A stretch of DNA of 64,000 nt from a bacterium (lineage in GTDB: Bacteria; Elusimicrobiota; Elusimicrobia; UBA1565; UBA9628), in contig JAJZCM010000003.1 in NCBI GenBank assembly GCA_021846045.1, forward strand, positions 23,604-87,603, read 5' to 3'. The translations under genes were made by a program, and so were the position numbers. Positions 4,103 through 61,467 of the stretch are shown piece after piece (positions within the stretch are counted from its first letter, which is position 1; each line of letters begins with the position of its first letter). The notes under the pieces are model-generated. The model saw only the letters and a program-made list of their open reading frames with translations, did no database searches and was not told the DNA's origin.

Positions 4103-6289
4103 TTAGATTTTCCGATGCGTGAGCGTTTTAAGAAAGGAGCTAAATTGCCGCTTTTGATCGGCCTTGGGCAGGCTGCGCTTGATGGCCTTAAAGACTGAAA
4201 TAAGAGATTTTTTTGATAGCCTAGAATTTTTTTTGAGCGCCCACAATTTCCGGCTTAAAGTAATCGCCATGGGAAGAGCATTGGGGGTTTCGGCGAATTG
4301 ATTCCACCAATTAATGAGCGCCTGATTATCTTTCAATCCTTGATAAGCTGAAACGGCTTGGCTGATGCGCTTGTCCTCAAACGGTTTTGAAGCCCAAACG
4401 CCGCTTTTTTGCGGCAGGCTTGTGATTTTCCCCAACGCGACGGCTTTGGCCAATAAAATCGCGGACTCAACTTCCTCCGGCTTGGGGTATTTCAAGGCGT
4501 AAACCCATCCGGATTGAACGTAGGCGTCAAAGCCCGCTTCTTTTAGTAAGGAGGACGCGCGGTTGTTTTCCGAATCTTGAAAAACCAAAAGGACGGTTCC
4601 TTGAGCTTGAAGGGTTCCCTGATCCGCGAAAAAGACGGGACGCTTGGTATTTTCCGATGCGCGTTTTAAAGCTTGAAACAAAAAGGCGACGGCGGACGCG
4701 TAAATTCTCTCGGTCCAATAGCTCAGAATCTTGGAATCGGCCAAGGACGCCGGGGCGGCCTTGAGTGTGCGGGTCAAGTCCGAAAGGCCTTGAATGCCGG
4801 AAGAGTCTCCGCTCAAACTTTCATAGGCTTTAGCCAAATTTTCCGCAGCCCGGGCGGAGGGGGCGCGTTTGAAATCAAAATAGGGACCGGTGAGAGAGCG
4901 AAGGTCGAGAAAAACAACGGAGGAACCCGGAAGCTGGCCGCCGGAATTTTTATCCAAGAAGCGGAGAATTCCTTGAAACGCGGGGGTGTGGGTTTTAAAT
5001 TCAATTCCATTTCCAAAATTGACGCGCGTGGGTTCTCGTAGTAAAGAAACGACGCGCCAAAACCAATTCCATAATCTGCGTCCCGCGATTCGGACTGAGT
5101 ATTGGGCCGCAGTCCAGGCGGCGGCAAGAGGAGATTTTCTCCCCAGGTTTCTTTCCAAATCATAAAAGGCCTTCCAGCTGATGGCGACGGTCGGCGAAAA
5201 AACCTTCTGGGCTCCGAAAACTAAAGCCAGGTTGCCCGCTTGGGAAAAATCTCGCGGCAAGAATTTGAGCGAGAGGGTCGCAAGCTCAAAAGGCGGTAAG
5301 ACTGCCTTGAATTGTCCCGAAGGCATTTTTTCCATGCGCAGGCTGGAATTAACTTGAACCCGTGCGTCCGTTTCTTGGGGAGCAGATTTCTTGAGGTTTT
5401 GAAGATAGCTTCGGGTTTCCGTCCAGTTTAAGATGATCGGTTTTTTCCGGATTCCCAAAAGACCGTTCCAAGATTCAAAGGCCTTGAGACCGCGCGCAAA
5501 GAGAGAATCTCTTCGGTTGAGCGCCGCTTCGGCGGTGGATTTTAATAGCCCGGGCAGGGATTTTTCCGCTTTGATCAACGCTGATTGAAGGATGGCGCGC
5601 TTAAATTGAGAAGCGATTGCGCGGACGAGTTCTCCCTTTTTGACTGCCTTATCCGTCGTTGAAAGAGCTGATTTAAACAAAAGCGGCGCGTCATAAGCGG
5701 AGGCGGAAGCGGCAACGGAAGCCGCCTGATAGACGCGGTCAAAGGCATTTTCCGCTTTTCCTGGAACTTGAGGCGAAGAGGTTTTTTTGCGGCGCTTGGG
5801 GCTGGCGGCCTCGCGGTCGAAAATTTTTCGCAATTGATTTTGAAGCGCTTCGACGTCTTCGGGATTGGCGTTTTGAATAGAGTTAAGGCTTGGCTCTCTC
5901 GCCGTCCAAGCCTGATTGCTTGGGGGAATTCCAACCGGAAGATTTTTACTTTTGGCTTGGGTTTGAAAAAGCGAGCGGCGGGCTACGGCTTTGGCTGGAG
6001 ACTTATCTAGTGAAGGCGAGACCTTCGTTTTCTGCGTTTGGGGCGACGTCTTGGCTTGGGCCGGCAAAATGATTTGAGCGTTTTGAGCCTGGACGCTGGG
6101 CAGAGATTCAGACCCGGACGGCAAGGCGTTTTGAACCGGATTTTCTTGAATCCCCAAGTCCTGGTCGGGCGTTTGGGGCTGGGAAAGAACGGGCGAATTG
6201 TCGCTTGAGGGGGTTTCTGTTTCGACGTTCTGAGGCACGGCCTGAGCCTTCCAAGAAGTCAGGCAAAAGAATAGGAAGAGAAACCGCAT
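4103..6289 (-). CDS. Large secreted hypothetical protein (signal peptide, low-complexity Pro/Gln/Ser-rich N-terminal region)
   Basis: 728 aa. N-terminus MRFLFLFFCLTSWKAQA is signal-peptide-like. No domain recognised by eye. Confidence 0.5.
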   Translation of the reverse strand: MRFLFLFFCLTSWKAQAVPQNVETETPSSDNSPVLSQPQTPDQDLGIQENPVQNALPSGSESLPSVQAQNAQIILPAQAKTSPQTQKTKVSPSLDKSPAKAVARRSLFQTQAKSKNLPVGIPPSNQAWTAREPSLNSIQNANPEDVEALQNQLRKIFDREAASPKRRKKTSSPQVPGKAENAFDRVYQAASVAASASAYDAPLLFKSALSTTDKAVKKGELVRAIASQFKRAILQSALIKAEKSLPGLLKSTAEAALNRRDSLFARGLKAFESWNGLLGIRKKPIILNWTETRSYLQNLKKSAPQETDARVQVNSSLRMEKMPSGQFKAVLPPFELATLSLKFLPRDFSQAGNLALVFGAQKVFSPTVAISWKAFYDLERNLGRKSPLAAAWTAAQYSVRIAGRRLWNWFWRVVSLLREPTRVNFGNGIEFKTHTPAFQGILRFLDKNSGGQLPGSSVVFLDLRSLTGPYFDFKRAPSARAAENLAKAYESLSGDSSGIQGLSDLTRTLKAAPASLADSKILSYWTERIYASAVAFLFQALKRASENTKRPVFFADQGTLQAQGTVLLVFQDSENNRASSLLKEAGFDAYVQSGWVYALKYPKPEEVESAILLAKAVALGKITSLPQKSGVWASKPFEDKRISQAVSAYQGLKDNQALINWWNQFAETPNALPMAITLSRKLWALKKNSRLSKKSLISVFKAIKRSLPKADQKRQFSSFLKTLTHRKI

Positions 6290-8322: not shown

Positions 8323-9246
8323 TTAATTATTGTTCGAGAGCTTCTGGGAAATTTTTGCGCGCAGTTCCAAGATGGCTCGAACGTAGTTGTCGGAAGGATT
8401 GTAGGCGTAAATGGAATTCCAAACGGCGGAGCCTTGGCCATAACCCCCGGGGGCGTATCCATGGGCGATCAAATAATGGGAGACGCTGGCCAAAACATCG
8501 GGCCAAGTTTTCCAATCCTTGAGTCCATCCCCGTCGAAATCGACGGCGTAGGCGTTGTAGCTGGACGGCATGAATTGAAAGTAGCCGAAAGCTCCGGCGT
8601 AGGAGCCGTCCACGGATTGCGGCGGGATGCTTCCTTTGTAGCAAAGTTCCATGTAGGCCGCGAGTTCCTGGCGCGCCCAATCGGAAAGCGCCGGAATTTT
8701 AGCCGAAATGGTGTAAAGAGCGGAGATGACCGGAATGTTGCCGGTGACGTGTCCCCAACGCGTTTCAACTCCAACCAAACTCACCAAAACCAAGGGATCG
8801 ACCTGGTAGTCGCTTTGGATTTGGGTCAGAAGTTTCGCGTGTTTTTGATAAAAAGCGGCGCCATAATTGATGTTGGATTTGGTAATGAAGCGCTTGCGGT
8901 ATTCTTCATAGGGCATTTTCTCGGCGGAACGGTGGAATAGGGAAATAATGGCCGGGATAATCTTGGTTTTTGGGTTGAACAAGGCCTGGTGAACAAAGGA
9001 ATCGGGAACGCCGGTATTTGAAAGACGGTTGAGGATGTCCCGGTAAATGGTTTGCTTGCCGAGGGCTTTTTTGCTTTCGGTTAAATGGCCCAATGAGGAG
9101 GTCTTTTGTTTTAAGAGGACTTGGATCTGCCCCACTTGGTTAAAGAACGCGGAATCATTTTGCGGCAGGTTTACCGCTGATTGGACGGGGAGATTGCCGG
9201 CAAATAAAACGAAGACGAGTCCCAGAGACAATTTTTTGGTATTCAT
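8323..9246 (-). CDS. mltB: Lytic murein transglycosylase B family protein (start taken at second in-frame ATG, MNTKKLSLGLVFVLFAGN signal peptide)
   Basis: Motif SYAGAFGYFQFMPSSYNAYAVDFDGDGLKDWKTWPDVLASVSHYLIAHGY is diagnostic of MltB/SLT domain 2 proteins. The ORF extends to 9303 but the upstream 57 nt is a conserved leader also found at 60560-60616. Confidence 0.8.
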   Translation of the reverse strand: MNTKKLSLGLVFVLFAGNLPVQSAVNLPQNDSAFFNQVGQIQVLLKQKTSSLGHLTESKKALGKQTIYRDILNRLSNTGVPDSFVHQALFNPKTKIIPAIISLFHRSAEKMPYEEYRKRFITKSNINYGAAFYQKHAKLLTQIQSDYQVDPLVLVSLVGVETRWGHVTGNIPVISALYTISAKIPALSDWARQELAAYMELCYKGSIPPQSVDGSYAGAFGYFQFMPSSYNAYAVDFDGDGLKDWKTWPDVLASVSHYLIAHGYAPGGYGQGSAVWNSIYAYNPSDNYVRAILELRAKISQKLSNNN

Positions 9247-9303
9247 GGTTTCCTTTTGAAACAAACTCCGGAGCCAACCATTTCCTCGCTTAAGCTTGGT
9301 CAT
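9244..9303 (-). promoter_or_regulatory. Conserved 5' leader (copy A) shared with the ankyrin-caspase gene at 60557-60616; contains SD AAGGAAA and a possible AUGGUU/AACCAU stem overlapping the start codon
   Basis: About 60/63 nt are identical between the two loci and the flanks are unrelated. The block is in frame with an upstream ATG (MTKLKRGNGWLRSLFQKET). Confidence 0.5.
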
Positions 9304-9351
9304 AGTTCAAGTCTAGCATACAAGACTTACACAAGGCCATTGGAAATTCCT

Positions 9352-23458: not shown

Positions 23459-24357
23459 AGCGTCAAATATTTGTCACTGCCGATGATTTTGGGGCAAGCC
23501 CCGAGGTCAATGCCGCCATTATCCGCGCCTACAAAGAAGGGATTTTGCGCTACACGAGTTTGCTTGTTGACGCCCCGGCGGCTAAGGCGGCGGCGGAACT
23601 CGCCCGTCAAAACCCGGGCTTGGGAGTGGGGTTGCACTTGAATTTATGCGACTCAAATCCTGCCCTTTACGGACTTAAATATTTCTTCTTGCCGTCTTGG
23701 CGCAAGCGCTTGGAGCCTGAAATAAAGCGCCAGATGGAAAAACTGAAAAGTTTTGGCATTAATCCGACTCATGCCGACGGACATATCAATATCCATATCC
23801 ATCCCGTTATTTTCCCCGCTCTTTTGAGCGTTTGCAAAAAATTGGGCGTTTCCCGCGTCAGAATTCCTGCCGGAGAATACGGTCTGGGGATGCGCTATTT
23901 AAAAAAAGTCGTAACTACTCACGTCACCCCGACGAAAGTCGGGGTCCAGAGCAACGATTTTCTGGGTTCCGGCTTTCGCCGGAATGACGAACCTGAGCAG
24001 TTGCAAAAAATCTCTTTAGGAAGCAGAGTTGAATACGCGGCGTTTTGGACTTTGGGAAATTATTTAAAGAAAAAGGCCGAAATAATCGCGCCGGAAATTA
24101 AAATTTTTCCGCGCTCGTTTGGCCTTCTGCGTTCAGGGCGCATGAAAGAAGATTATGTTTTGTGGCTGCTTGAAAATCTGCCGGAAGGGGAAACTGAAAT
24201 TTATTTCCATCCCTCCTTGGACCCGGACAGCCGTGTTGCTGGAGAACGCCCAACTCCGAGCCATCAAACCTTAACCGAGTTTGAAACTTTGATTAGTCCG
24301 CGTATTTTAGAGGCTCTAAAACGTTCGGCTGTTTCATTGTCCCAGCGCGAGCTCTGA
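23455..24357 (+). CDS. hpnK: ChbG/YdjC-family carbohydrate deacetylase, HpnK-like; carries an in-frame insertion of a hairpin repeat (23909-24006)
   Basis: N-terminal FVTADDFGASPEVNAAI YdjC signature. GTG start at 23455 overlaps the preceding stop (GTGA). The peptide ...[30 protein letters not shown] is encoded by the repeat family also found at 52118 and 53748. Confidence 0.65.
   Translation: MKRQIFVTADDFGASPEVNAAIIRAYKEGILRYTSLLVDAPAAKAAAELARQNPGLGVGLHLNLCDSNPALYGLKYFFLPSWRKRLEPEIKRQMEKLKSFGINPTHADGHINIHIHPVIFPALLSVCKKLGVSRVRIPAGEYGLGMRYLKKVVTTHVTPTKVGVQSNDFLGSGFRRNDEPEQLQKISLGSRVEYAAFWTLGNYLKKKAEIIAPEIKIFPRSFGLLRSGRMKEDYVLWLLENLPEGETEIYFHPSLDPDSRVAGERPTPSHQTLTEFETLISPRILEALKRSAVSLSQREL
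23909..24006 (+). repeat. Double-hairpin dispersed repeat, family 1, copy 1 (inside the hpnK-like CDS)
   Basis: tcgtaactactcacgtcaccccgacgaaagtcggggtccag...ttccggctttcgccggaatgacgaacctgagcagttgca. It has two stem-loops (CCCCGACGAAAGTCGGGG and TTCCGGCTTTCGCCGGAA) and is about 85% identical to the copy at 52118-52213. Confidence 0.8.
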
Positions 24358-27955: not shown

Positions 27956-28462
27956 TTAGGCGGCGGCCGGAATCAGTTTAAGGGCGGCTGTTTCAATCGA
28001 GAAGAGAGCGGCGGTAAAGAATAGATCGCCCAAAGCTGAATTTCTCAAAAAAGGAAGAGCAGCCATGTAGCAATTGATAAGGCCGGAGGCGTTATGGGCA
28101 TAGAGGCCGGAAGTCATCCAGACGCCGAAATTGGTCAGGATGAAAAATAACAATGAGCTTCCCAGGCAAGCGGCGGCCACCATCTGCGCGTTGCGGCGTT
28201 TCTTGAGAAAAAGTCCCAAGGCCGAGACCAAGATGAAAGAAACGTAGACAAAGGGCATTGTCCCATGGAAGCCCAAAAACAAGTCGCTTAAGAAAAGAGC
28301 GCCTAAGGGAACGGTTAAGGCTAAAGCCGGGGTTAAATAAGCCCCGCCCAAAAGAGCGATGGCCGTGAGAGGCGTGACGTTCGCCGGATGCGGCAAGAGG
28401 CGCGCGACGGCGCCCATTAAAATGACGCTGACGCTGACTGATACTGTTTTCTTGTGGTTCAT
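27956..28462 (-). CDS. Small polytopic membrane protein (ECF-transporter S-component-like/DUF), function unknown
   Basis: 168 aa with about 5 TM helices and no diagnostic motif. Confidence 0.35.
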   Translation of the reverse strand: MNHKKTVSVSVSVILMGAVARLLPHPANVTPLTAIALLGGAYLTPALALTVPLGALFLSDLFLGFHGTMPFVYVSFILVSALGLFLKKRRNAQMVAAACLGSSLLFFILTNFGVWMTSGLYAHNASGLINCYMAALPFLRNSALGDLFFTAALFSIETAALKLIPAAA

Positions 28463-37026: not shown

Positions 37027-38165
37027 CGGAATCAAAAGTTCGCATTTTGATCGTCGATGACGACCCGCATATTCGCGAGTCTTTGTTTGACGTTCTTGAA
37101 GATGCCGGCTACGAGGTTTTTAAGGCATCCGGAGAAAAAGAGGCTTTGTCCGAGGTCCGAACGCATTCCTTTGACGTGATCCTGATGGATTATAACTTGC
37201 CGAACTCAACCGGAATCCAGGTCATCAAGAAAATCAGAAAAATCGATTTGAAAAGCCAGATATTGATGCTGACGGCGGATCGGACTCAAGAAACCGCGGT
37301 CATGGCCATTCAGGAATCCGTGGCGGATTTTTTGGTCAAGCCGGTCGACGTCGATCACCTCAAACACGCGATTTCAAACTCTCTGGAAAAATTGCGCCTG
37401 ATGCGGGAAAACGAGCGGATGTCTCTTGAATTGAAAAAAACCAACGAGAACTTGGAACATTTAGACCGGATGAAATCCAAGTTCCTTTCGATGTCTTCGC
37501 ATGATTTGTCGAACGCCTTGATGGCCCTTCAGGCCAGCTTCGAACTTCTTTCTCAAACAATCAATCCCTCCGAAGAACAGAAGAAAAGAATGACCGCGAT
37601 TTCTTCGAGCATTAGTCAGTTGACCCGCTTGACTGCCGATCTGGTCGATTGGGCTTCCATTGAAAACGGAAAATTCAGGATTGAGCGGGAAATGTGCAGG
37701 CCGGAGATCCTTTTGCAGGAAATTCTTCCGGGCTCTCAAGCGCGGGCGCAGGCGCGGGGGATTAAGTTCACGGAAAAAATAGAAAAGTCCTTGCCCGACA
37801 TCTACGCCGATAAAAGACGCATTTCCCAGGTTCTCAATAATTTGCTTGAAAATGCCATTCGCTATACTTCGAAGGGCGGGGAAATTTCAGTTTATGCGAT
37901 GCGGGCCTTAAATGAAAACTCAAAACCCGCCATTCGATTCGGAGTGAAGGACTCCGGAGATGGAATTTTGCCGACCGAACTCAATAAAATTTTTCAGAGC
38001 TTCTATCAAGGCCCGGATGCTTCGAAGGGTGGACGTCTCGGCTTGGGATTGGCCACCTCGAAAGAAATCATCGAAGCCCATGACGGGAAAATGGGCGTTG
38101 AAAGCGAGGGCATTGGCCACGGCGCGACCTTCTTTTTTACGATTCCAACCTCGAAAAATTCATGA
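37023..38165 (+). CDS. Hybrid response regulator receiver fused to histidine kinase (REC-HisKA-HATPase_c)
   Basis: Receiver ILIVDDD...DVILMDYNLPNSTG, then H-box MKSKFLSMSSHDLSNAL and ATPase G-boxes. The stop lies at the edge of the 66-bp repeat array. Confidence 0.8.
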   Translation: MTESKVRILIVDDDPHIRESLFDVLEDAGYEVFKASGEKEALSEVRTHSFDVILMDYNLPNSTGIQVIKKIRKIDLKSQILMLTADRTQETAVMAIQESVADFLVKPVDVDHLKHAISNSLEKLRLMRENERMSLELKKTNENLEHLDRMKSKFLSMSSHDLSNALMALQASFELLSQTINPSEEQKKRMTAISSSISQLTRLTADLVDWASIENGKFRIEREMCRPEILLQEILPGSQARAQARGIKFTEKIEKSLPDIYADKRRISQVLNNLLENAIRYTSKGGEISVYAMRALNENSKPAIRFGVKDSGDGILPTELNKIFQSFYQGPDASKGGRLGLGLATSKEIIEAHDGKMGVESEGIGHGATFFFTIPTSKNS

Positions 38166-38575
38166 CCGGCTGCGTTCCTTGCTCGCGAAGCGAGAGCGTG
38201 CCGAAACATCTTGAGAAAAGGCGTTATGATTCGGCCTGCGTTCCTTGCTCGCGAAGCGAGAGCGTGCCGAAACATCTTGAGAAAAGGCGTTATGATTCGG
38301 CCTGCGTTCCTTGCTCGCGGAGCGAGAGCGTGCCGAAACATCTTGAGAAAAGGCGTTATGATTCGGCCTGCGTTCCTTGCTCGCGAAGCGAGAGCGTGCC
38401 GAAACATCTTGAGAAAAGGCGTTATGATTCGGCCTGCGTTCCTTGCTCGCGGAGCGAGAGCGTGCCGAAACATCTTGAGAAAAGGCGTTATGATTCGGCC
38501 TGCGTTCCTTGCTCGCGGAGCGAGAGCGTGCCGAAACATCTTGAGAAAAGGCGTTATGATTCGGCCCGCCGAATA
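38158..38575 (+). repeat. Tandem array of about 6.3 copies of a 66-bp hairpin-containing unit (family 2)
   Basis: Unit ggcctgcgttccttgctcgcgaagcgagagcgtgccgaaacatcttgagaaaaggcgttatgattc is repeated at period 66 with at most 1 mismatch per unit. Each unit contains the stem-loop CTCGC-GAA-GCGAG. It is not CRISPR-like because there are no unique spacers. Confidence 0.9.
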
Positions 38576-40621
38576 GGATGGTTTGTCCTCCCTTTTTTCC
38601 TTGCTTCCTGCGCCACGGTCCAGGTCCCCATGTCGGTTACCTTTCCTCCGGCGGTTGATTTGTCTCCGTATCGGCGTTTTGCGTTCGGCGATATGAATGG
38701 AAACTCTGGGCGTCGTTTTCAGGACGCCTTGGCAACGGATTTGGCGCGTTCAAAAAAATTTAATTTCATCAATCGGGACCGGCTGAATGTGTTGGTCGCG
38801 GAATATGATTTGACGCAAACTCAAAATCCGACAAGCGCCAAGACCGGCCAAATCGCGATTGAAATTCATGATGCGGCGTTTATTTCTGGAACGATCAATA
38901 AAAATTACTATGAATTTGTGAGGGAGTCTCCAGATACCTGCCAGCGGAATAATCGCGCCCATCCGTGCCCTTTAAGAACGCGCGTGGGCCGGATTCGCAT
39001 TGGCGGACATTTGGATGTAATGGATGCGGCAACCGGACGATTGATCCATTCACAGACGATAGCCAAGGTGTGCCAAGCCCAAAGTCAAGCTAAAAATGCC
39101 TTTCCTGAAGCCATCAACCGAGCGCAGCTGGCTGAAAATTGCGTCAATTCCGCCGCCTATGATCTAGCGGCGCTTTTCTTGCCCTCCAGAAAAATGTTTT
39201 ATCCGGATTTTAAAAAAGTAGGAGATATCCCGGCTGTTGCCCAAGGAATCAAGGACGTGGAGGCCGGCAAAATAGGAGAAGCGGCCAAGGATTTTAGCGC
39301 GGCCCTTAAAGACCCGAAGGCGACGAGCCGGAATTTTAGTAAAAAATCCTTGTCAGAAATCTATTGGGACGGCGCGCTGGCCCAAGAATATTCCTGGCAG
39401 TTCGGCCCGGCCCTGGATTCCTTGAAAAAATCCTACGCGCTCAATCCCCTCGCGGAAACGCGAAAAGAGGAGTCGCAGCTTCTCGGCCTTGAATCCGCGC
39501 GGAGAAGGCTTTTGGGCGTTACTCCGCTCATGCTGGCGGTTGAGGGTGGAGCTTTCAACCAGGTTAAGGCGCTTCTTGAAAAAGGCGCGGACCCCAACGC
39601 TCAGGACGTTTCAGGCAACACCGCTCTAATGGGGGCGGCGCAAAAGCGGAATTTGCCCATGGTTCAAATTCTTCTTCGCTATGGGGCTTGGCCCAGCATC
39701 AGAAACAATCAGGGACTAAGCGCTCAAGACATGTCCCGGGATCAAAAAATTTCCAATTTGTTGAGCGAGAATTTTTCAAAACCATCCGCGCCGCGGCAAG
39801 AGGGGGCTTTGCCTTCTCCCAAGGCCGTGATTCATTCCGATGTGGATCAGGTTCCCTACCATTTTCCCGAAGACCCGTTTAAAATCGCCTTGGTCATCGG
39901 CATCGAGCATTATGAGAACAATCTCCCCTCGGCGGATTTCGCCGATCATGATGCCGAAGTCATGCGTGAACATTTAATGGCTTTAGGTTACGCTCCGCGC
40001 CACATTCATTGGCTCAAAGATCAGCAAGCGACTCGCGCCGCCTTGGTCAAGAATCTGGAAGGCTGGCTCCCACAAGTCGTTTCTTCCTCAGCGACCGTTT
40101 TTGTCTATTATTCCGGTCATGGGGCGGCGGACCCGGAAACTCATACAACCTATTTGGTTCCCGCAGATGGGGATTCCGGTTATCTTCAGGAAACGGCTTA
40201 TCCTCTCTCAAGGCTTTATTTGACTCTTGGAAAATTGCCCGCCAAACAAGTGATTGTCGCTTTGGACTCGTGTTTTTCCGGTAGGGGCGCGCGGTCTTTA
40301 TCTCCTGCGGGAGTGCGGCCTTTAGTCACTTTATCTCCGGTGGTTCCTTTAGTGGAAGGGGTGGTCGCGATGACGGCGGCTTCCGGGACTCAGATTGCGG
40401 AAGTTCTCAATTCCGAGGGACATGGCCTATTTACCTATTATTTTTTGAAAGGTCTTAACGGCCCGGCAAAAAACAAGTCGAATAAAATATCGGTGCAGTC
40501 GTTATACCGGTATTTGCGTCCGCAAGTCGAGGATGCGGCGGGAATGAAAAACCGCACGCAAACGCCCGAACTTTTACCCGGAAGCGTTGCCCATTCAAAT
40601 GCCATCGTTTTAGTTCCATGA
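38521..40621 (+). CDS. Lipoprotein with ankyrin repeats and C-terminal caspase-like (peptidase C14) domain; likely GTG start inside the last repeat unit
   Basis: Lipobox LPFFLASC after a basic n-region. Ankyrin repeats (TPLMLAVEGGAFNQVKALLEKGADPNAQDVSGNTALMGAA...). Caspase fold with catalytic dyad context YYSGHGA and ALDSCFSGRG. The ORF track version 38162..40621 reads through the repeat array. Confidence 0.7.
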
Positions 40622-41772
40622 ATGAAGATAGTCCTGATTTAAATATTCCGGTCGATTTCGATTTGGAATCCTATCGCTTTTCCTATCCTGAGGAATTGTT
40701 GGCCGCGAGTCCTCTTGATAAGAGAGATGATTGCCGCCTGTTGGTTTTAGACCGCTCTTTAGGAACGGTCTTTCATGAACAATTTCACTCGCTTCCCAAG
40801 CATCTCAAGCCCGGGGATTGCTTGGTTCTCAATGAGACTCGGGTCTTTTCCTGCCGCTTGGTCGGCAAGAAAAAGAGCGGCGGAAAGGCGGAAATTCTTC
40901 TAACCCGAGAAATCAGTCCCGGATACTGGGCGGCATTGGGTTCGGGTTTTAAGAAGGGGCATGAATTAATTTTTACGGGCAACCTGACGGGGCAAATTGA
41001 AGGGTTAAACGAGGATGGCGAGTATTTGATAAGGTTTGACCGCGAGGATATCCAGTCTTACATGGAGCGTAATGGTTTGCCGCCTCTTCCTCCCTACATT
41101 CTCAAAAAAAGAAAATTTTCGCCTGCGTTCCTTGCTCGCGAAGCGAGAGCGTGCGAGGGCATCTCGGGGAAAGATTTTAGGCACGCGCCCGTTGCGGAAT
41201 CATCCGAAAAAAACGATCAAGAATCTTATCAAACCGTTTATGCGCGGAATTTGGGCTCGATTGCCGCTCCCACCGCCGGGCTTCATTTTACGCCGGAGCT
41301 CCTTCGGGAAATCGAGCGCCAAGGAGTTTTCATTTGCCGGCTGACCCTTCATGTCGGACGCGGAACCTTTAAACCGATTGTTTCAAGAGACATTCGCCGG
41401 CATAAAATGCTTCCGGAATATTATCACGTCAATTTGGAAAATTCGCGGAAACTAAAAGAGGCTCAAGAACGCGGCGGAAAAATAATTGCTGTTGGCACGA
41501 CAGTCGTGAGAACCCTTGAGACCTTGGCCAAAAATCAAAACAGAGACGGTCCCATTTCTGAAATGTCCGGCTGGACCGATCTTTTTGTATATCCGGGGTA
41601 TCCGCTTAGGATGGCGTCGGCCTTGGTGACCAATTTTCATTTGCCGGAGTCGACCCCTCTTATTCTCGCCGCTGCCTTTGCCGGGCGAGAAAAATTGCTT
41701 AAGATTTACCAGGAGGCTTTTCTTTTGAAATACCGTCTCTTTTCTTACGGCGACGCAATGCTGATTTTGTAG
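40618..41772 (+). CDS. queA: S-adenosylmethionine:tRNA ribosyltransferase-isomerase QueA, carrying an in-frame insertion of a family-2 repeat unit
   Basis: QueA blocks LLVLDR, PLPPYI, YQTVYA...GSIAAPTAGLHFT and a C-terminal TNFHLPESTPLIL motif. About 30 extra residues (KKRKFSPAFLAREARACEGISGKDFRHAPVAESSEK) sit between PLPPYI and YQTVYA, encoded by the repeat at 41112-41175. Confidence 0.85.
   Translation: MNEDSPDLNIPVDFDLESYRFSYPEELLAASPLDKRDDCRLLVLDRSLGTVFHEQFHSLPKHLKPGDCLVLNETRVFSCRLVGKKKSGGKAEILLTREISPGYWAALGSGFKKGHELIFTGNLTGQIEGLNEDGEYLIRFDREDIQSYMERNGLPPLPPYILKKRKFSPAFLAREARACEGISGKDFRHAPVAESSEKNDQESYQTVYARNLGSIAAPTAGLHFTPELLREIERQGVFICRLTLHVGRGTFKPIVSRDIRRHKMLPEYYHVNLENSRKLKEAQERGGKIIAVGTTVVRTLETLAKNQNRDGPISEMSGWTDLFVYPGYPLRMASALVTNFHLPESTPLILAAAFAGREKLLKIYQEAFLLKYRLFSYGDAMLIL
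41112..41175 (+). repeat. Solo copy of the family-2 66-bp hairpin repeat inside queA
   Basis: ttcgcctgcgttccttgctcgcgaagcgagagcgtgcgagggcatctcggggaaag matches the tandem-array unit (38158-38575) over about 45 nt, including the CTCGC-GAA-GCGAG hairpin. Confidence 0.8.
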
Positions 41773-51529: not shown

Positions 51530-52239
51530 TGAGGCGCCGGTTTTCCATAGGCTTGACCGGGGGCATCGGTTCGGGAAAAACAGAGGCTCTCCGCCGTTTT
51601 TCCGCCTTGGGAGCCGCAACTATTTCCTTGGATGAAATCGCGCATGAGCAGTCTCGCCCCGGAGGACCGGCTTTCTTGAAAATGATCAGGGCTTTTGGAC
51701 GCCAAATTTTAGATGAGTCAGGCTGCATTGACCGGAAAAAAGTAGCCGACCGGGTCTTCTTAAATTCTAATTTACGAAAACGCTTGGAACGTTTGACTCA
51801 CCCTTTAATCCTTAAAGAGATGCAAAGCCAAATGAAACTTTTGTTCGGGATTGTGGTGGTCGATGTCCCGCTTCTTTTTGAAGGACGCCATGAAAAAAAT
51901 TTTGACGCGACCTTGGCCGTTCTCGCGCCGGCCAACGTTAGGCTTCATCGCGTTTCTAAAAGAGACCGGCTTTCGCCTTCGGAAATAAGAAAAAGAATGT
52001 TTGCCCAGATTTCAGATGAAGAGCGCATGAAACGCGCAGATGTCGTCATCGATAATGACGGAGACTTGGCCGCCTTTCACCAAGATGTTAAACGATATTA
52101 TCAGGCTTTTTGTTTAATCGTAACTACTCAGGTCACCCCGGCGCAAGCCGGGGTCCAGAACAGCGATTTCCTGGATTCCGGCTTGCGCCGGAATGACGAA
52201 CCTGAGCAGTTGCATTTAATCAATCAAGAACAAAGATAG
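51529..52239 (+). CDS. coaE: Dephospho-CoA kinase with C-terminal extension encoded by a family-1 hairpin repeat
   Basis: [15 protein letters not shown]-loop. The final about 35 codons (...[38 protein letters not shown]) are the repeat copy at 52118-52213. Confidence 0.85.
52118..52213 (+). repeat. Double-hairpin dispersed repeat, family 1, copy 2 (3' end of coaE)
   Basis: tcgtaactactcaggtcaccccggcgcaagccggggtccagaacagcgatttcctggattccggcttgcgccggaatgacgaacctgagcagttgca. Confidence 0.8.
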
Positions 52240-52324
52240 TCCCTTTCCTCATAATCTTAAGGTCGGGACAATGCCATCCCTAAGAATTATGAGGAAGAGG
52301 CATAGAAAAATTAGGAGAATAAGT

Positions 52325-53747: not shown

Positions 53748-53826
53748 CTCCTCACCGTCATTCCGGCGCAAGCCGGAATCCAATTGGAAACCTGGACCCC
53801 GACTTTCGTCGGGGTGACGAATGTAA
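53748..53826 (-). repeat. Double-hairpin dispersed repeat, family 1, copy 3 (inverted, intergenic downstream of rho)
   Basis: Reverse complement reads gtcaccccgacgaaagtcggggtccag...attccggcttgcgccggaatgacg. The centre between the two hairpins differs from copies 1 and 2. Confidence 0.75.
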
Positions 53827-55318: not shown

Positions 55319-56629
55319 ATGAGACTCACCATTCACCGCGGCGCTAAAGAAATTGGCGGGTCCTGCGTTGAGATCACGGCGGGCCGGACGCGGGTCATCG
55401 TGGACCTCGGGATGCCTTTGGTCTCGCCTTGGAACAAGAAGGAAAAACTCGAAACGCGCGGTTTTGCGAAAAAATCATCACAGGAACTGCTCGATATGGC
55501 CGTACTCCCGAAGGTCGCCGGACTTTATGCGATGGATGGGGGCGGGGCTGCGGTCGACGCCGTGCTTCTCTCTCATCCCCACCAGGATCATTACGGGCTT
55601 CTTGGACATATCCGGCCCGGAATTCCGGTGTATCTCAGTGACGGTTGTCGCCGCATCATCGAGGCCTCGGATATTTTTCTTCCCATCAAGGCGAATATCC
55701 GCAACCCCGTCGTGATTGATGACCGCAAGCCGGTGAAGATCGGCGACATCACGGTCACGCCCTACCTCATGGACCATTCCGGCTACGGCGCGCTGGCTTT
55801 CCTCATAGAAGGAGACGGCAAGAAGGTCTTTTATTCCGGCGATTTTCGCGCTCATGGACGTAAGGCAGCGCTCTTTCCGAAGTTTGTGCGCACAGCTCCG
55901 CAGGGCGTGGACTGCCTTCTCATGGAGGGAACGACCCTCGGGCGCGAGGGCCGCGCGCCGGAAACGGAGACCGATATCGAGGAAAAAATCGCCGGAATCG
56001 CCCGCCGATATAAAGGGATCAAGCTCGTCTACGCCTCGGGACAAAATATCGACCGCCTCGTTTCCTTCTACAAAGCAGCCAAGAGTATCGGTGGGGTCTT
56101 CGTCGTGGACCTCTACACAGCCTTCGTTCTCGACTCCTTGGGGAACAAGAATATCCCTCATCCCTGCGCGAGTTGCAGAAACTTGAGGGTACTCTATACC
56201 AAGAATTATGTGATAAAACTGGCGCAGGCGGGGCGCGAGGACGCCGTCAAGCGCTATCGCGGCTCGGAGATCACGCTGCGGGAGATCGCGAAGGCGGGGG
56301 AAAAGGCTTTCCTGATGTATCGGGAGTCCATCCGGCCCAAGATCGAAAAAATCGGGGACTTAAAGGACGCGGCCATGATCTATTCGATGTACGAAGGCTA
56401 TAAGCGGGAGGAGTCGTTCAAGAAGGTTCAGTCGTTTCTGGATGAGAACAAAATCATGCTTGAAACCGCGCACACGAGCGGCCACGCCTCTTTCGACGAC
56501 CTCAAACGCTTGGCCGCGGCGCTCAAGCCCAATGTCCTGACCCCGATTCATACCTTCAACCCCGAGCGCTATGCCGAGCTCTGGCCCAAGGTTCGTTCAC
56601 TCAACGACGGCGAGACCTTTGAGCCGTGA
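55319..56629 (+). CDS. MBL-fold metallo-hydrolase, beta-CASP-like nuclease/RNase family
   Basis: HPHQDHYG (HxHxDH) motif 2, later DHSGY and EGTTLGRE blocks, and C-terminal HTSGHAS. 436 aa. Confidence 0.65.
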   Translation: MRLTIHRGAKEIGGSCVEITAGRTRVIVDLGMPLVSPWNKKEKLETRGFAKKSSQELLDMAVLPKVAGLYAMDGGGAAVDAVLLSHPHQDHYGLLGHIRPGIPVYLSDGCRRIIEASDIFLPIKANIRNPVVIDDRKPVKIGDITVTPYLMDHSGYGALAFLIEGDGKKVFYSGDFRAHGRKAALFPKFVRTAPQGVDCLLMEGTTLGREGRAPETETDIEEKIAGIARRYKGIKLVYASGQNIDRLVSFYKAAKSIGGVFVVDLYTAFVLDSLGNKNIPHPCASCRNLRVLYTKNYVIKLAQAGREDAVKRYRGSEITLREIAKAGEKAFLMYRESIRPKIEKIGDLKDAAMIYSMYEGYKREESFKKVQSFLDENKIMLETAHTSGHASFDDLKRLAAALKPNVLTPIHTFNPERYAELWPKVRSLNDGETFEP

Positions 56630-57141: not shown

Positions 57142-57870
57142 ATGTATATTGTGGACGTAACCATGCCAGTACAAGAGTCATCCAAAGATTGGGCGCGGCT
57201 CCGCAAATGTCCCTCAGAGGCCAGTATCCGTGAAATTTGCCGCCGGGTTGACGATGATTCCTGGGAAAATGCGAGTCCGAAACTTGAAAATAAAAAAGCG
57301 TTCGTTTCGGGAAGGTCTCCTAAAGATTCCAATGGGAGCGGGCCAGAGGCTCGTTTGGAGCGGCGATTGATCGAAGAGGTTCGTACGGTTGCGCTACCAA
57401 GGCAACGCAAAGGGATATCGACCATAACATTCGTGGCGTCGGCGTTCCCCGTTGGTGCAGGCAAGCGCGGACAGATAGATCTTCTAGGGGTTTCTGATAC
57501 AGGTGGCGTAATTGTTGTCGAACTTAAGGCCGTCTCAAATAATCCTTGGTGGGCAGTAGTTGAGGTGACTGAGTATCTTCTTCGTTTGCGCGCCAATTAT
57601 CCTCGCGTTAAGGCCTGGCTGGAGAATAAATGCAATGTGGCCGTCGGCACCCTGAAGTCTAGCCGAGGTTTGGCGGTATTGCCGCAAGGTTTATTTCGCG
57701 AGAAAGAGAAAGAATCTAATTTTGCAAAGGACTTGGTGAAGGCGCTTCGTAAGAAGGAGCTTAATATCGAGCTATATGAAATGGGCTATGAGGGGAGTGG
57801 GCGCTTGCCGCAATTTCACAAGCTAACGAAATGGATGTGTGTATTTGGTCGCAAAAACCCAAAACGTTAG
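57142..57870 (+). CDS. PD-(D/E)xK-fold nuclease-like protein (Hjc/NucS-like motif GQIDLLGVSDTGGVIVVELK)
   Basis: Motif IDLL...D..G...VVELK matches restriction-endonuclease-fold catalytic core spacing. No other recognised domains. Confidence 0.45.
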   Translation: MYIVDVTMPVQESSKDWARLRKCPSEASIREICRRVDDDSWENASPKLENKKAFVSGRSPKDSNGSGPEARLERRLIEEVRTVALPRQRKGISTITFVASAFPVGAGKRGQIDLLGVSDTGGVIVVELKAVSNNPWWAVVEVTEYLLRLRANYPRVKAWLENKCNVAVGTLKSSRGLAVLPQGLFREKEKESNFAKDLVKALRKKELNIELYEMGYEGSGRLPQFHKLTKWMCVFGRKNPKR

Positions 57871-58019
57871 TGGTAGCAATTTGCTGATCGATCCGAAGAA
57901 TGTCCATTTGTGCGCCCTTGCCACCTCCAATTATTACAAGGACTGGTATTTGTCACCAGTGACGGACACAATAAATAAGGACACTGTTCGATAAATTTCT
58001 GCGTATCCATCACGGGAAT

Positions 58020-58451
58020 GTGGACTGCCTGCTCATGGAGGGAACGACCCTCGGGCGCGAGGACGCCGTCAAGCGCTATCGCGGCTCGGAGATCACGCTG
58101 CGGGAGATCGCGAAGGCGGGGGAAAAGGCTTTCCTGATGTATCGGGAGTCCATCCGGCCCAAGATCGAAAAAATCGGGGACTTAAAGGACGCGGCCATGA
58201 TCTATTCGATGTATGAAGGCTATAAGCGGGAGGAGTCGTTCAAGAAGGTCCAGTCGTTTCTGGATGAGAAGAAAATCACGCTTGAAACTGCGCACACGAG
58301 CGGCCACGCCTCTTTTGACGACCTCAAACGCTTGGCCGCAGCGCTCAAGCCCAATGTCCTGACCCCGATTCATACCTTCAACCCCGAGCGCTATGCCGAG
58401 CTCTGGCCCAAGGTTCGTTCGCTCAACGACGGCGAGACCTTTGAGCCGTGA
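58020..58451 (+). pseudogene. Truncated, internally deleted duplicate of the 3' part of the MBL-fold gene (copy of 55910-56629)
   Basis: About 98% nucleotide identity to 55910-55950 plus 56238-56629. The missing 288 bp are bounded in the intact gene by the short direct repeat GGGCGCGAGG. Similarity continues about 25 nt past the stop. Confidence 0.8.
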
Positions 58452-58495
58452 GTCGGGGACGGGAGGTCGTGTGCCACGCTGGGACACCCGCGCTC

Positions 58496-60559
58496 CTATC
58501 GAATTCTGACTAAAGCAATTTTCCCCACCGGTTTCGGTTCCACCTGAGGGACCTGGTCGGCGTTGTTGTCGAGACTGGCGGCGGCCGGAACCTTTCGCTT
58601 GAGATATCGCGACAGGGATCCCACCGTCACATGGCCAGCCCTCTTTGCTCCTCCATCTATTCCCTTCAGAAAGTAGTAGGTGAAAAGCCCGTGACCAGTC
58701 TTCTCATCCGGCCCCGCCTCCTGGTCGGCTTTTGCGGCAGAAAAGGCGATCAGCTTCCCAGTCCGTGGAAAGCTCCCTTCCTTAACAACCGTGACAAGGG
58801 CGCGCACGCCCTTCCCTATGACGGAGCGTCCGGGCCTCCCGGAAAAGCAGGCGTCTAAAGCGATAAGGACCCGTTTCGCATGAAGACGGTTGAGATCATT
58901 GTAAAAGCTGGTTTCACGGTAGGCGGTGTCTCTTAGGTCGTTGGGATTTCCTCCGGATGGAACGAGGTAGGTGTGACCATGAGCCCCCGGAGCTCCATGA
59001 CCCGAGAAATAGACCCAGACGGTTGAGTCCGGCTTTGCGTTCCGCCCGAGCCAGCGTATCCCTCCCTTGATTCCACCCCGTGTGGCCGTGCCGTTTGTGA
59101 GACGTTTGATATGGTCGGGAGGAACCCCTAGGGCAATCAGTGTGCGATAGACTGCACGGGAGTCCCGATCGGCGAACTGGACGGACGGAAGACCCCCGGG
59201 GTATTTTTCCACGCCGATCACGAGGGCAAACATGTGGCGGTTCCTGGGGGCCTTGAAGGTCGGACGATCAACGGAGGAATGAAAGACGCGAGCCTTGGGC
59301 TTAGCCTTGCGTTTGCCAATCTTCCTCACCTGCCGCTCAAGATTGGACAGCGCCTCGATCACCTGTGGCGAGGCCTGAGAAGACTGCGCGGGTTGCGCCT
59401 GTTGCTCCGCGATGGCGTTTTTTATGAGGTTGGCAACTTTATAATGGTTTTCATCTTCAGCCCATGTAAGAGCGGTCCCGCCTTTTACATCTACGACATT
59501 GAGATCGGCCCCGCTGGCAATCAAGAGCTTGACGATATTGGCGTGACCATATGTCGCGGCCAATATAAGAGCGGTAGCACCGAATTGGTTATTTACGGCA
59601 TTGACATTGGCACCGGCGGCAATCAAGAGCTTGGCGATATCTGTATGGCCTTTTACAGCGGCATTCATGAGAGCGGTAGTACTGCCGTAGCCGTATTGGT
59701 TATTTGTGGCATTGACATTGGCACCGGCGGCAATCAAGAGCTTGGCGATATCGGCATGATCAGCAACCCCGGCACCTATAAGAGCGGTATTGCCAGATTC
59801 GTCCGCGGCATTGACATTGGCGCCGCTGGCGATCAAGAGCTTGGCGACATTGGCGTGACCATAGTACGCGGCATTCATGAGAGCGGTTCCGCCGTTTTTG
59901 GCTGTGGCATTGACATCCGCCCCATCAGCAATCAAGAGCTTGGCGATATCCGTATGGCCTTTTACCGCGGCATTCATGAGAGCGGTTATGCCGTCTTTGT
60001 CTGCGGCATTGACGTCGGCCCTGGCCTTGAGAAGAAGGGAGATTATGTTCGCATTACCATTCTTAGCCGCATTCATCAGCGCGGTGTTCCCAGCATTGCC
60101 CCTAGCATTGACATCGGCCCCAGCCTTGAGAAGAGTGGTGACCATGTCCGCATTACCATTCTCAGCTGCATTCATCAGCGCGGTGAACCCAATATCGTCC
60201 CTAGCATTGATGTCAGCCCCGGCCTTGATAAGAAGTGTGACCACGTTTGCATGACCAGTTGCAGCCGCAGCCATCAGCGCGGTGTTGTCATAAGGCTCGT
60301 CCACGGCATTGATGGAAGCCCCGGCCTTGAGAAGAGCAGCGACCACGTTCGCTTGACCATTCGAAGCCGCATATAGCAACGCGGTGAACCCAATATCATC
60401 CTTGGCATTGACGTCGGCCCCGGCTTTGATGGCTTTCTCAACACCACCAAGGTCTCCGTTTTGTGCCGCGGAAAAAAGAGCTGCAGACGCGCATCCCAAA
60501 ATGTTCAGGGCGCCCGCCAAAAACAAGATGATAAAGAACATTGAAAGACCTCTATTCAT
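58496..60559 (-). CDS. Secreted ankyrin-repeat protein with C-terminal caspase-like (peptidase C14) domain; paralogue of 38521..40621
   Basis: Signal peptide MNRGLSMFFIILFLAGALNILGCASA. At least 9 ankyrin repeats (GADVNAKDDIGFTALLYAA...). Caspase fold with YFSGHGA and ALDACFSGRPG dyad contexts. The ORF track start 60616 includes the conserved leader. Confidence 0.75.
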   Translation of the reverse strand: MNRGLSMFFIILFLAGALNILGCASAALFSAAQNGDLGGVEKAIKAGADVNAKDDIGFTALLYAASNGQANVVAALLKAGASINAVDEPYDNTALMAAAATGHANVVTLLIKAGADINARDDIGFTALMNAAENGNADMVTTLLKAGADVNARGNAGNTALMNAAKNGNANIISLLLKARADVNAADKDGITALMNAAVKGHTDIAKLLIADGADVNATAKNGGTALMNAAYYGHANVAKLLIASGANVNAADESGNTALIGAGVADHADIAKLLIAAGANVNATNNQYGYGSTTALMNAAVKGHTDIAKLLIAAGANVNAVNNQFGATALILAATYGHANIVKLLIASGADLNVVDVKGGTALTWAEDENHYKVANLIKNAIAEQQAQPAQSSQASPQVIEALSNLERQVRKIGKRKAKPKARVFHSSVDRPTFKAPRNRHMFALVIGVEKYPGGLPSVQFADRDSRAVYRTLIALGVPPDHIKRLTNGTATRGGIKGGIRWLGRNAKPDSTVWVYFSGHGAPGAHGHTYLVPSGGNPNDLRDTAYRETSFYNDLNRLHAKRVLIALDACFSGRPGRSVIGKGVRALVTVVKEGSFPRTGKLIAFSAAKADQEAGPDEKTGHGLFTYYFLKGIDGGAKRAGHVTVGSLSRYLKRKVPAAASLDNNADQVPQVEPKPVGKIALVRIR

Positions 60560-60616
60560 GGTTTCCTTTTGAAACATACTCTGGAGCCAACCATTTCCTC
60601 GCTTAAGCTCGGTCAT
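60557..60616 (-). promoter_or_regulatory. Conserved 5' leader (copy B), about 95% identical to 9244-9303
   Basis: ATGACCGAGCTTAAGCGAGGAAATGGTTGGCTCCAGAGTATGTTTCAAAAGGAAACC precedes the signal-peptide ATG. There are 3 mismatches to copy A. Confidence 0.5.
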
Positions 60617-60708
60617 GGTTTCCCTCCGTACGAACTCCCGCGTTCAGCCTGCCGCGATCTCGACACATGACCCGCCAATTTCTTTAGCACCGCGATGGAT
60701 GGTGATGT

Positions 60709-61467
60709 TCATGAACAACCAGCCCTCAGATTTTTTTTAACGACCTTGAATAACAGCTCTAGCTGATAGATGCTGACGTTCAATGTCTCTATGAGTTTTT
60801 TAAGCGCGGGACGCTTGTCCTTTTTAATTTCTTCTGCTTCGTCGAAGGCACGGCAGTTTCCAAACAAAAGAATTGACTTTTGAATTTCCTTTTTTTCGGC
60901 GCCGAAATCCTTTAGGAATTTTGTGTCGCATAACTGACGGGAATAGGTCTCAATTTCAAGGACTGCTCGCAACAGGGTGTCCTTGCTGTCATATTTGAAT
61001 TCAATAAGGTGAAGGGAGTCTTCCGTTTCCGAAACCAAATCAATTTTCCCCGCTTTGTCGGCCCGTTCATCGTTGAGCGGGACCTGATATTCGATAATCT
61101 GGCCCAATTCTCCCAAGCTCGCTTGATGGCAGAAGAGCATTTTGGCAAACGTAACTTCACCGCAGAGGCTTTTCTTCATGTCATCACCGCAAGGCACAGG
61201 TTTATGCCACTTATAAGTGCTTTTCCTTGTTATTTGCTTTATTTTCTCGAATCTTTGTTTGTTTTTCTCTAACTCTTTCGCCATTACTTCCGTGTAGTAC
61301 TCCTCGGTATCCTTCGTTTTCCCTTTCTGTTTAATAAATTCCTTATTATAGAGCCTCGAAAAATCCCCAACGTTGTTTAGGCGATATAGTGTCTCGGCGC
61401 GTGTGTATTCTTTAGACATAATCCCTCCTCGCAGCTTGTTTTGCTCCTGGCTACATTGGCGTCCCAC
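60709..61467 (-). CDS. Hypothetical protein with PD-(D/E)xK-like motif (GKIDLVSETEDSLHLIEFKYD); AT-rich gene
   Basis: 252 aa. GC content is visibly lower than in neighbouring genes. The start codon abuts the stop of the upstream AAA+ ATPase gene. Confidence 0.4.
   Translation of the reverse strand: MGRQCSQEQNKLRGGIMSKEYTRAETLYRLNNVGDFSRLYNKEFIKQKGKTKDTEEYYTEVMAKELEKNKQRFEKIKQITRKSTYKWHKPVPCGDDMKKSLCGEVTFAKMLFCHQASLGELGQIIEYQVPLNDERADKAGKIDLVSETEDSLHLIEFKYDSKDTLLRAVLEIETYSRQLCDTKFLKDFGAEKKEIQKSILLFGNCRAFDEAEEIKKDKRPALKKLIETLNVSIYQLELLFKVVKKNLRAGCS

Follow-up and report, generated by a model that had tools for sequence, protein, structure and literature searches.

A block of 56 or 57 nucleotides, standing directly before the start codons of unrelated genes in a narrow clade of the Elusimicrobiota, is probably a small non-autonomous insertion element whose target is the ATGA at gene starts. 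The block was noticed in a 64,000-nucleotide stretch of contig JAJZCM010000003.1 from a bacterium of this phylum (hereafter, the window), where one copy precedes mltB, encoding a lytic transglycosylase, and the other precedes a gene encoding an ankyrin-caspase lipoprotein. A comparison between filled sites and empty ones in related genomes shows that the event is a precise insertion duplicating ATGA.

Copies in the window

The two copies in the window are identical at 54 of 57 positions, or at 63 of 66 when the next codons are included (9303..9238 against 60616..60551, minus strand). Read in the direction of the genes, the sequence is ATGACC(A/G)AGCTTAAGCGAGGAAATGGTTGGCTCC(G/A)GAGT(T/A)TGTTTCAAAAGGAAACC-ATG-AATA. 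Comparison of the window with itself by blastn yields the same pair (60553-60620 against 9240-9307, 68 nt, 94.1% identity, E 5e-23), and the exact cores of 27 and 22 nt occur twice each, with 0.00 and 0.02 occurrences, respectively, expected from shuffled sequences. The similarity extends from the upstream ATG, with at most 3-4 further bases (AACY) before it, to ATGAAT(A), the flanks being unrelated. An initial sequence-only reading of the window had described two near-identical blocks at these gene starts, and this description is confirmed in place, degree of identity and lack of similarity between the flanks. Its further details hold as well: the upstream ATG is in frame in both copies, all three differences between them are non-synonymous (K/E, R/Q, L/M), and both the Shine-Dalgarno-like run AAGGAAACC and the 6-nt inverted repeat AUGGUU/AACCAU are present. 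Copy 1 is base-for-base the same in an independent ENA assembly (L033), hence it is not an assembly artefact.

The mltB product has 326 amino acids if the in-frame ATG of the element is taken as the start. The MltB orthologs have 301-307 amino acids, and their start corresponds to the position of the second ATG. By the names given to MltB homologs, the organism belongs to the Elusimicrobiota. The odd topology noted in the sequence-only reading, that is, an extension placed before a signal peptide, finds its explanation in an in-frame insertion immediately behind the initial start codon. The public gene call P0001 (positions 886-1866 of L033) starts mltB at the ATG of the element. This has a consequence for annotation, as gene callers add 19 codons (326 amino acids in P0001) and so create spurious N-terminal extensions before signal peptides.

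The ankyrin-caspase protein has an N-terminus of the lipoprotein signal peptide type (…NILGC). The exported fusion is in itself unusual: behind the signal peptide come ankyrin repeats, about nine or more in number, and then a caspase domain at the C-terminus (58496-60559, minus strand).

Copies in related genomes

An exact scan with a 21-mer, applied to one genome per species, yielded three more copies in two unclassified metagenome-assembled genomes (MAGs). A codon-degenerate scan of metagenome contigs, using ATGACNNNNNNNAARCGNGGNAAYGGNTGG with free third codon positions, added two more (L006 and L008). Together with the window pair (denoted w1 and w2), this makes seven independent loci, distributed over at least four genomes. 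Thus the search for further copies, suggested in the sequence-only reading, produced five more loci, situated before unrelated genes (Table 1).

All seven copies are located directly at a gene start and have the same orientation as the gene. Such positions cannot be due to chance, since only about 19 of the 571 ATGA sites in the window (about 3%) are gene starts. In the seven-way alignment, ATGACC marks the exact onset of the conservation, and the ATG of the gene its end.

Eight other matches of the codon-degenerate scan are chance ones, being situated inside unrelated open reading frames (ORFs) or lacking the 3' half. Viral contigs, scanned with the 21-mer and with the 5' module, contained no copies, and a blastn search of plasmids gave no match to the element. 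The likeness of the encoded KRGNGW to the N-termini of integrases (L011) was judged coincidental.

Empty and filled sites

The element is absent from the orthologous mltB site in three relatives (L014, L018 and L019), whose sequences align with the window on both sides of the site. The MltB orthologs lacking the element are 85% identical to the window protein in YF2.bin79 (81% at the nucleotide level) and 78-79% identical in L018 and L019. The synteny is retained on both sides, by the Wzy/TPR gene and the OmpA-like, secretin and T2SSE genes on the one hand, and by the PMT_2 and ETF genes on the other. With a slash marking the junctions, the empty site reads TATGCTAAACTTAAAWT/ATGAAT (ATGGAC in L019), and the filled site in the window reads TATGCTAGACTTGAACT/ATGACC...GGAAACC/ATGAAT. 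The sole difference is the 57 extra bases, the empty sites having a single ATGA or ATGG.

The second comparison is provided by the junction of tadB and tadC. In six loci with TadC 91-96% identical, this site is empty, and the genes overlap by the four nucleotides ATGA (coordinates 10004/10001). The empty junction is gggagatgtccaRgt/atgag, with aggt before the overlap in most loci and aagt in L022 and L023. In YF2.bin79 and in other assemblies with identical TadC, exactly 56 nt are situated between two copies of ATGA, the flanks otherwise matching. For copy 2 the look-up yielded no empty site, as neither the metallo-beta-lactamase (MBL) protein of the window nor its ankyrin-caspase protein is on record there.

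Between genomes whose mltB genes share 81% of nucleotides, the identity of the element copies is 88-93%, and the filled sites differ by species. Since different genes are filled and the copies are more alike than the mltB genes, the element has been active, or has been exchanged, after the lineages split. The insertions are young and species-specific.

These data divide one suggestion of the sequence-only reading, namely that the block might be the end of a small mobile promoter cassette. Its mobility is borne out by the two comparisons of empty and filled sites, both demonstrating a precise insertion of 56 or 57 nt. The promoter part does not hold, because the whole unit is only 56-57 nt long and lies downstream of the native promoter region, which is kept in the element-free relatives.

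The same comparisons bear on the possibility that the window copies are the attL and attR sites of a 51-kb island, or else the remains of a segmental duplication or of gene conversion between gene starts. Both copies have the same orientation at a distance of 51.3 kb, and copy 2 lies beside rearranged pseudogene fragments, which would agree with such an origin. However, copy 1 is flanked on both sides by core chromosome that is syntenic in the three relatives, the 57-nt indel being the only difference, and the region between the copies contains polA, rho, coaE, tgt and similar core genes. Moreover, on other contigs the copies are single and precede other genes. The synteny and the precise indel rule out an attachment site, an island or a segmental duplication for practical purposes, the probability left to them being minute. 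The sequence-only reading had named one outcome that would speak against a regulatory element, that is, no other copies combined with a duplication including coding sequence; we see other copies, and no coding sequence is shared past ATGAAT(A).

Three known classes of mobile sequences were considered as well. In an integron attC site, the core consensus would be RYYYAAC...GTTRRRY, from which, on direct reading of the sequence, both GCYTAAG and GTTGGCT of the element deviate; besides, the unit is not palindromic. A classical MITE (miniature inverted-repeat transposable element) was rejected, as the ATGA target duplication is present but the terminal inverted repeats are absent. The fixed ATGA beside the element is compatible with palindrome-associated transposable elements or repetitive extragenic palindromic (REP) sequences of the IS200/IS605 type, but the element has only one weak hairpin.

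Table 1. Features of the window and the loci carrying the element in related genomes
Feature	Position	Strand	Remarks
Element, copy 1, 57-nt form, ATGACCAAGCTTAAGCGAGGAAATGGTTGGCTCCGGAGTTTGTTTCAAAAGGAAACC	9247..9303	-	Inserted at the mltB start codon
Element, copy 2, 57-nt form	60560..60616	-	Precedes the ankyrin-caspase lipoprotein gene, at its start codon
Second unit of the ATGA duplication, copy 1	9243..9246	-	mltB start codon and next base; first ATGA at 9300-9303
Second ATGA, copy 2	60556..60559	-	Ankyrin-caspase start codon and next base; first ATGA at 60613-60616
mltB, SLT_2 lytic transglycosylase, 307 aa from the second ATG	8323..9246	-	Pfam SLT_2, E 2e-58
Ankyrin-repeat and caspase (Peptidase_C14) protein, 687 aa from the second ATG	58496..60559	-	Pfam Ank families and Peptidase_C14
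Shine-Dalgarno-like run AAAGGAAAC, supplied by the element for the gene's own ATG	9248..9256	-	
AUGGUUGGCUCC, nt 23-34 of the element, with complementarity to GGA-AACCAU, where the Shine-Dalgarno sequence and the start lie	9270..9281	-	Masking stem of the sequence-only reading
Extended -10-like motif TGCTAGACT, 6 nt before the ATG of the element	9310..9318	-	Direct reading of the alignment
20-nt remnant AGTTCGTACGGAGGGAAACC, like the 3' end of the 56-nt form, abutting copy 2	60617..60636	-	nhmmer partial match 60638-60613, E 0.13
Metallo-beta-lactamase-fold pseudogene, N-terminal fragment fused to the remnant	60637..60705	-	85.5% identical to 55326-55394; tblastn MNITIHRGAKEIGGSCVEIAAG*
L001, MAG YF2.bin79			Downstream gene acs (acetyl-CoA synthetase); Pfam
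L002, MAG YF2.bin79			Downstream gene tadC, second of two T2SSF (TadB/TadC-type) genes; Pfam
L003, MAG LSA5.bin12			Downstream gene motB, directly after motA; Pfam
L006, VFSW01 contig			Downstream gene enoyl reductase/SDR; Pfam
L008, VFSW01 contig			Downstream gene for a 150-aa protein without a Pfam family; Pfam

Organization of the element

The element occurs in two length forms. In the 57-nt form, measured from ATG to ATG (w1, w2 and L001), the upstream ATG shares the frame of the gene. In the 56-nt form (L002, L003, L006 and L008), it opens a separate 19-codon ORF. This mini-ORF ends at the TGA of the gene's ATGA in L002, L003 and L008, and four codons later in L006. At the other side, the upstream gene (a T2SSF gene in L002 and motA in L003) ends with TGA inside the first ATGA of the element. 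The arrangement of the 56-nt form is therefore one in which the upstream stop, the start and the stop of the mini-ORF, and the gene start all overlap as ATGA.

Common to all copies are the 5' ATGA, the open frame, and GGAAACC-ATG(A) at the 3' end. The first ATG of the element takes the place of the original start codon. The Shine-Dalgarno-like run GGAAACCATG is kept in six of the seven copies, the variant in L001 being TGAAACCATG. The seven copies are nearly invariant in the 5' block (nt 1-34), with three variable columns; 12 of the 16 columns vary in the linker (nt 35-50), and one of ten at the 3' end (nt 51-60).

Several observations weigh against the reading as a mobile element. Positions 1-34 are about ten times less variable than positions 35-50, part of this contrast being due to ascertainment, as L001-L003 were found with a pattern that demanded nt 14-34. 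Since a purely neutral passenger would not produce such low variation, some sequence-specific function exists, and it could be mobility recognition, an RNA function or protein binding. Further, the surroundings of the copies revealed no transposase, recombinase or other gene for mobilisation, and the element lacks terminal inverted repeats, having only the internal 6-nt pair ATGGTT/AACCAT; hence it is the insertion polymorphism alone that justifies the term "mobile element". The copy number seems low, with two copies in the 64-kb window and two exact-core matches in the whole YF2.bin79 MAG, and no copy was seen in about 340 kb of other related loci. Finally, both the translation of the mini-ORF and the hand-over of ribosomes to the gene, described below, are presumptive.

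Translation across the insertion

The orientation of the element and the architecture of its ORF are read directly from the sequence, and they suggest how an insertion into a start codon may be tolerated. The element integrates at an ATGA formed by a start codon with one more base, or by the stop/start overlap of two genes, and the ATGA is duplicated. The first ATG would then inherit the earlier mode of initiation, whether at the 5'-terminal AUG of an mRNA without a leader, by means of a Shine-Dalgarno sequence upstream, or by re-initiation behind an upstream UGA. Next comes the 19-codon open frame, and after it the Shine-Dalgarno-like GGAAACC, which abuts the ATG of the gene itself. The mini-ORF of the 56-nt form would stop at the UGA of the second AUGA, and termination followed by re-initiation would hand the ribosomes on, making the element a translational-coupling relay. 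In the 57-nt form, the gene would yield either a protein with 19 extra N-terminal residues before the signal peptide or the normal protein, initiated at the internal Shine-Dalgarno sequence and ATG. The hand-over is suggested by the known behaviour of overlaps at -4 nt (reviewed in PMC12548453), and we infer that the insertion is nearly neutral for the host.

The element-free relatives have a counterpart of the extended -10-like motif of the window, TGCTAAACT, at 6 nt before the mltB ATG, and no Shine-Dalgarno sequence there. Upstream of the copies in L006 and L008 we find TGATATAAT at 8 nt and TTGACA-17-TATCAC at 9 nt, respectively. Scans for sigma-70 promoters near the copies gave no convincing -35/-10 pair beside the element, the extended -10 motif coming from direct inspection only. 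To judge by these motifs, the mltB transcript is presumably leaderless or nearly so, and the same probably applies to several other target genes.

The combination of TGnTAnnnT, a gap of 6-8 nt and ATG, without a Shine-Dalgarno sequence, is also observed at two other places in the window (4103..6289 and 27956..28462, both on the minus strand). A Shine-Dalgarno-like motif is present at only about half of the crude gene starts of the window, and leaderless mRNAs may be common in this genome.

The near-invariance of positions 1-34 and 51-60, combined with a variable linker, would also be expected of a cis-regulatory mRNA leader, be it a riboswitch, a thermosensor, or a site for a small RNA or a CsrA-like protein, in which pairing of AUGGUUGGCUCC with GGAAACCAU masks the Shine-Dalgarno sequence and the start. 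A pairing of 6+3 bp over the Shine-Dalgarno sequence and AUG can form in all seven copies, L001 losing one of the nine pairs; it is the RNAalifold consensus, and the energy of the masking duplex is -7.8 kcal/mol. Two GGA motifs lie about 30 nt apart, and a mobile origin is compatible with a regulatory effect acquired after insertion. On the other hand, the downstream genes have no common function or pathway, and relatives with proteins 78-96% identical lack the block at these genes. The fold energies resemble those of shuffled sequences (z from -0.86 to +0.43), and the probability of the helix lies anywhere between 0.00 and 0.81, according to the copy and to its downstream context. None of the pairs shows a compensatory change (0 compensatory pairs, covariation term +0.02), although the pairs of the stem are near-invariant across copies, so that covariation provides evidence neither way. 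No Rfam match was found at the gathering score or at E up to 5. Hence we consider a regulatory leader unlikely. Of the two suggestions of the sequence-only reading concerned here, the start-occluding stem is possible but gained no support from structure prediction and the covariation check, and the shared cis-regulatory leader is weakened by the unrelated genes, the absence from relatives, the ordinary folding and the lack of an Rfam match. If the masking stem is real, it would be opened by a ribosome translating the mini-ORF, and the coupling would become stronger.

Two related candidates were rejected. Membership in an Rfam cis-regulatory RNA family is not borne out, as there is neither a match nor a covariation-supported structure. 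For a pseudoknot, formed by a GAGYY/GGCUC helix together with AUGGUU/AACCAU, the sole support consists of Y-to-Y substitutions preserving G-C or G-U pairing, and the helix is broken in w1.

Alternatively, the block may encode a functional conserved peptide, MT(E/K)xKRGNGWL..., acting as a nascent leader peptide or an N-terminal tag. None of the seven copies has an interrupted frame, residues 1-11 hardly vary, and the mini-ORFs of L002, L003 and L008 end with ...RKP-stop, proline before a stop codon being a slow termination context. However, the conservation is at the nucleotide level: the scan with ATGACNNNNNNNAARCGNGGNAAYGGNTGG produced no synonymous variants, only copies with the same nucleotides and chance matches, and each of the three differences between the window copies changes an amino acid. 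Codon 4 encodes P, L or F, the C-terminal third differs both in sequence and in frame, and just three of the seven copies fuse the peptide to the gene product. A profile search in 5.8 billion protein clusters returned no scored family, which is a weak test for so short a peptide. In this search, made with the profile of a 60-column alignment, there were nine word candidates, none of them scored, a result that is uninformative as P0001 carries the extension. Thus, of the conserved leader peptide proposed in the sequence-only reading, the mini-ORF stands, being open in all copies, but its conservation as a peptide does not, and we give a functional peptide little credence.

Comparison with known systems

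The closest parallel to the proposed insertion element is provided by the MIRUs, or mycobacterial interspersed repetitive units, dispersed elements of 40-100 bp (Supply et al. 1997, as summarised in PMC12548453 and PMC3184786). According to a review (PMC12548453), they are mobile, insert at start codons and contain an ORF coupled at -4 nt; tetranucleotide direct repeats distinguish their filled sites from the empty ones, and the ends of the ORF overlap the flanking genes (PMC3184786). Both the MIRUs and the element are short dispersed repeats that share the orientation of the gene and occupy start codons or junctions between cistrons, the element being 56-57 nt long and so placed in seven of seven loci. 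Both have a small ORF overlapping the neighbouring stop or start by -4 nt; in the element, this is seen at both ends in L002 (tadB-tadC) and L003 (motA-motB), and at the 3' end in L008. In both, empty and filled sites differ by a tetranucleotide direct repeat, which in the element is ATGA, at mltB and at tadB-tadC. In both, the expression of the target gene is thought to be nearly unchanged, and the mobilising activity is unexplained.

The differences are considerable, too. The element occurs in the Elusimicrobiota and the MIRUs in the Actinomycetota; the element is AT-balanced, whereas the MIRUs come from GC-rich genomes, so no shared sequence is expected, and the two are compared by architecture and not by sequence. 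The 57-nt form (w1, w2 and L001), unlike MIRU, fuses the ORF in frame to the gene. By exact-core matches, about two element copies are seen per genome, compared to about 40-50 for MIRU, and at the loci found the copies are single rather than arranged in arrays of variable number of tandem repeats, with one partial tandem remnant of 20 nt. Several of them lie at the presumed 5' ends of leaderless or short-leader mRNAs and not inside operons. By its architecture, the element appears to be an independent, MIRU-like start-codon insertion element, and we do not file it as a member of the MIRU family.

A similar layout is known from synthetic biology. In the bicistronic design (BCD), a leader cistron contains the Shine-Dalgarno sequence of the gene, and the leader stop overlaps the gene start (PMC12548453), whereby initiation at the gene is brought about by the ribosomes that translate the leader. 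The BCD is an engineered part, whereas in the element the same architecture seems to have arisen by natural insertion.

MITEs and the Rickettsia palindromic elements (RPEs) are small non-autonomous repeats with empty and filled sites and a short target duplication, and some of them are tolerated in coding sequences or at their edges. The element differs from them by the lack of terminal inverted repeats, by a much smaller length, and by its strict position and orientation at the start codon.

MIRUs have been used for decades in the typing of tuberculosis strains, and their insertion into start codons has never been explained. An apparently unrelated element of the same architecture in another phylum suggests that translation-transparent insertion at start codons is no peculiarity of mycobacteria but a strategy to which small selfish DNA has resorted repeatedly. 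The principle as such is not new; rather, the element is a clean second example of a poorly understood mobility. Handles on the mobilising activity are offered by the clean empty and filled sites, the exact duplication of ATGA, the two length classes (coupled and in-frame) and the invariant 34-nt block.

One may go further and suppose that the element is an active mobile unit homing to translation starts, that the invariant 34-nt block is the recognition site of an undescribed enzyme or guide, and that the element has perhaps been co-opted as a portable module tying the translation of a gene to translation upstream of it. This extension is tentative, and we would sooner doubt it than accept it. 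If true, it would make the element a second independent and experimentally tractable case of MIRU-type mobility.

Neighbourhood of copy 2 and a divergent relative

The junction of copy 2 with the 20-nt remnant abutting it (Table 1), GGAAACC/ATGACC, is as expected for a tandem copy, to judge by the 3' ends of L003 and L006, which lends weak support to such an origin. The MBL fragment fused to the remnant is a rearrangement scar beside copy 2 and not a part of the element. The full gene, of the MBL/beta-CASP type, occupies 55319-56629 and encodes 436 amino acids. The second copy of this gene is scrambled: the C-terminal part (57981-58468, plus strand) is 97.6% identical and has an internal deletion, and the N-terminal 23 codons, containing a stop codon, are on the opposite strand (60637-60705, minus strand). 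MBL fragments on both strands flank the ankyrin-caspase gene, which points to a local rearrangement near copy 2.

Adjoining copy 2 are genes for an AAA ATPase (444 amino acids) and for two proteins of about 250 amino acids without Pfam families, in which nuclease-like IDL...E.K motifs were seen by eye (60709-62802, minus strand, and 57142-57870, plus strand). The stop codon of the 252-aa gene overlaps the ATG of the MBL fragment as ATGA. The genes beside copy 2 may form a defence-type cluster.

A divergent relative of the element is found in L029, whose TadC is 78% identical. Here the spacer that follows the TPR gene exceeds that of other relatives by about 67 nt. Positions 2405-2494 contain GGAAACC/ATGACCGAGTCTAAGCGAGG, followed by a degenerate inverted copy, so that an imperfect inverted repeat of 19 nt with a 34-nt spacer is formed. 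The part after GGAAACC corresponds to the first 20 nt of the element, and the composite opens a 32-codon upstream ORF (MTESKRG...) overlapping the start of the next gene. As these first 20 nt are present in the divergent L029, they are older than the 56- and 57-nt forms.

Other repeats in the window

The window contains another repeat family of about 100 nt, with copies at 52110-52223 (plus strand), 23909-24005 (plus strand) and 53756-53819 (minus strand). The unit consists of two GC-rich hairpins (CCCCGAC-GAAA-GTCGGGG and TTCCGGC-TTGC-GCCGGAA) within GTCA...TGAC and looks REP- or MITE-like. The coaE ORF has one copy in its 3' end, and another is situated downstream of rho.

About six tandem repeats of 66 nt (97-99% identical) occupy 38170-38569, inside an ORF of 819 amino acids (38162..40621). 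A 34-nt piece of this unit recurs at 41121-41154 in the next ORF.

The element aside, the window and L001 match at the nucleotide level only over the start region of rho (52236-52303 against 467-534, 69 nt, 85.5%). The gene order differs, as rho follows coaE in the window and has acs as its neighbour in L001.

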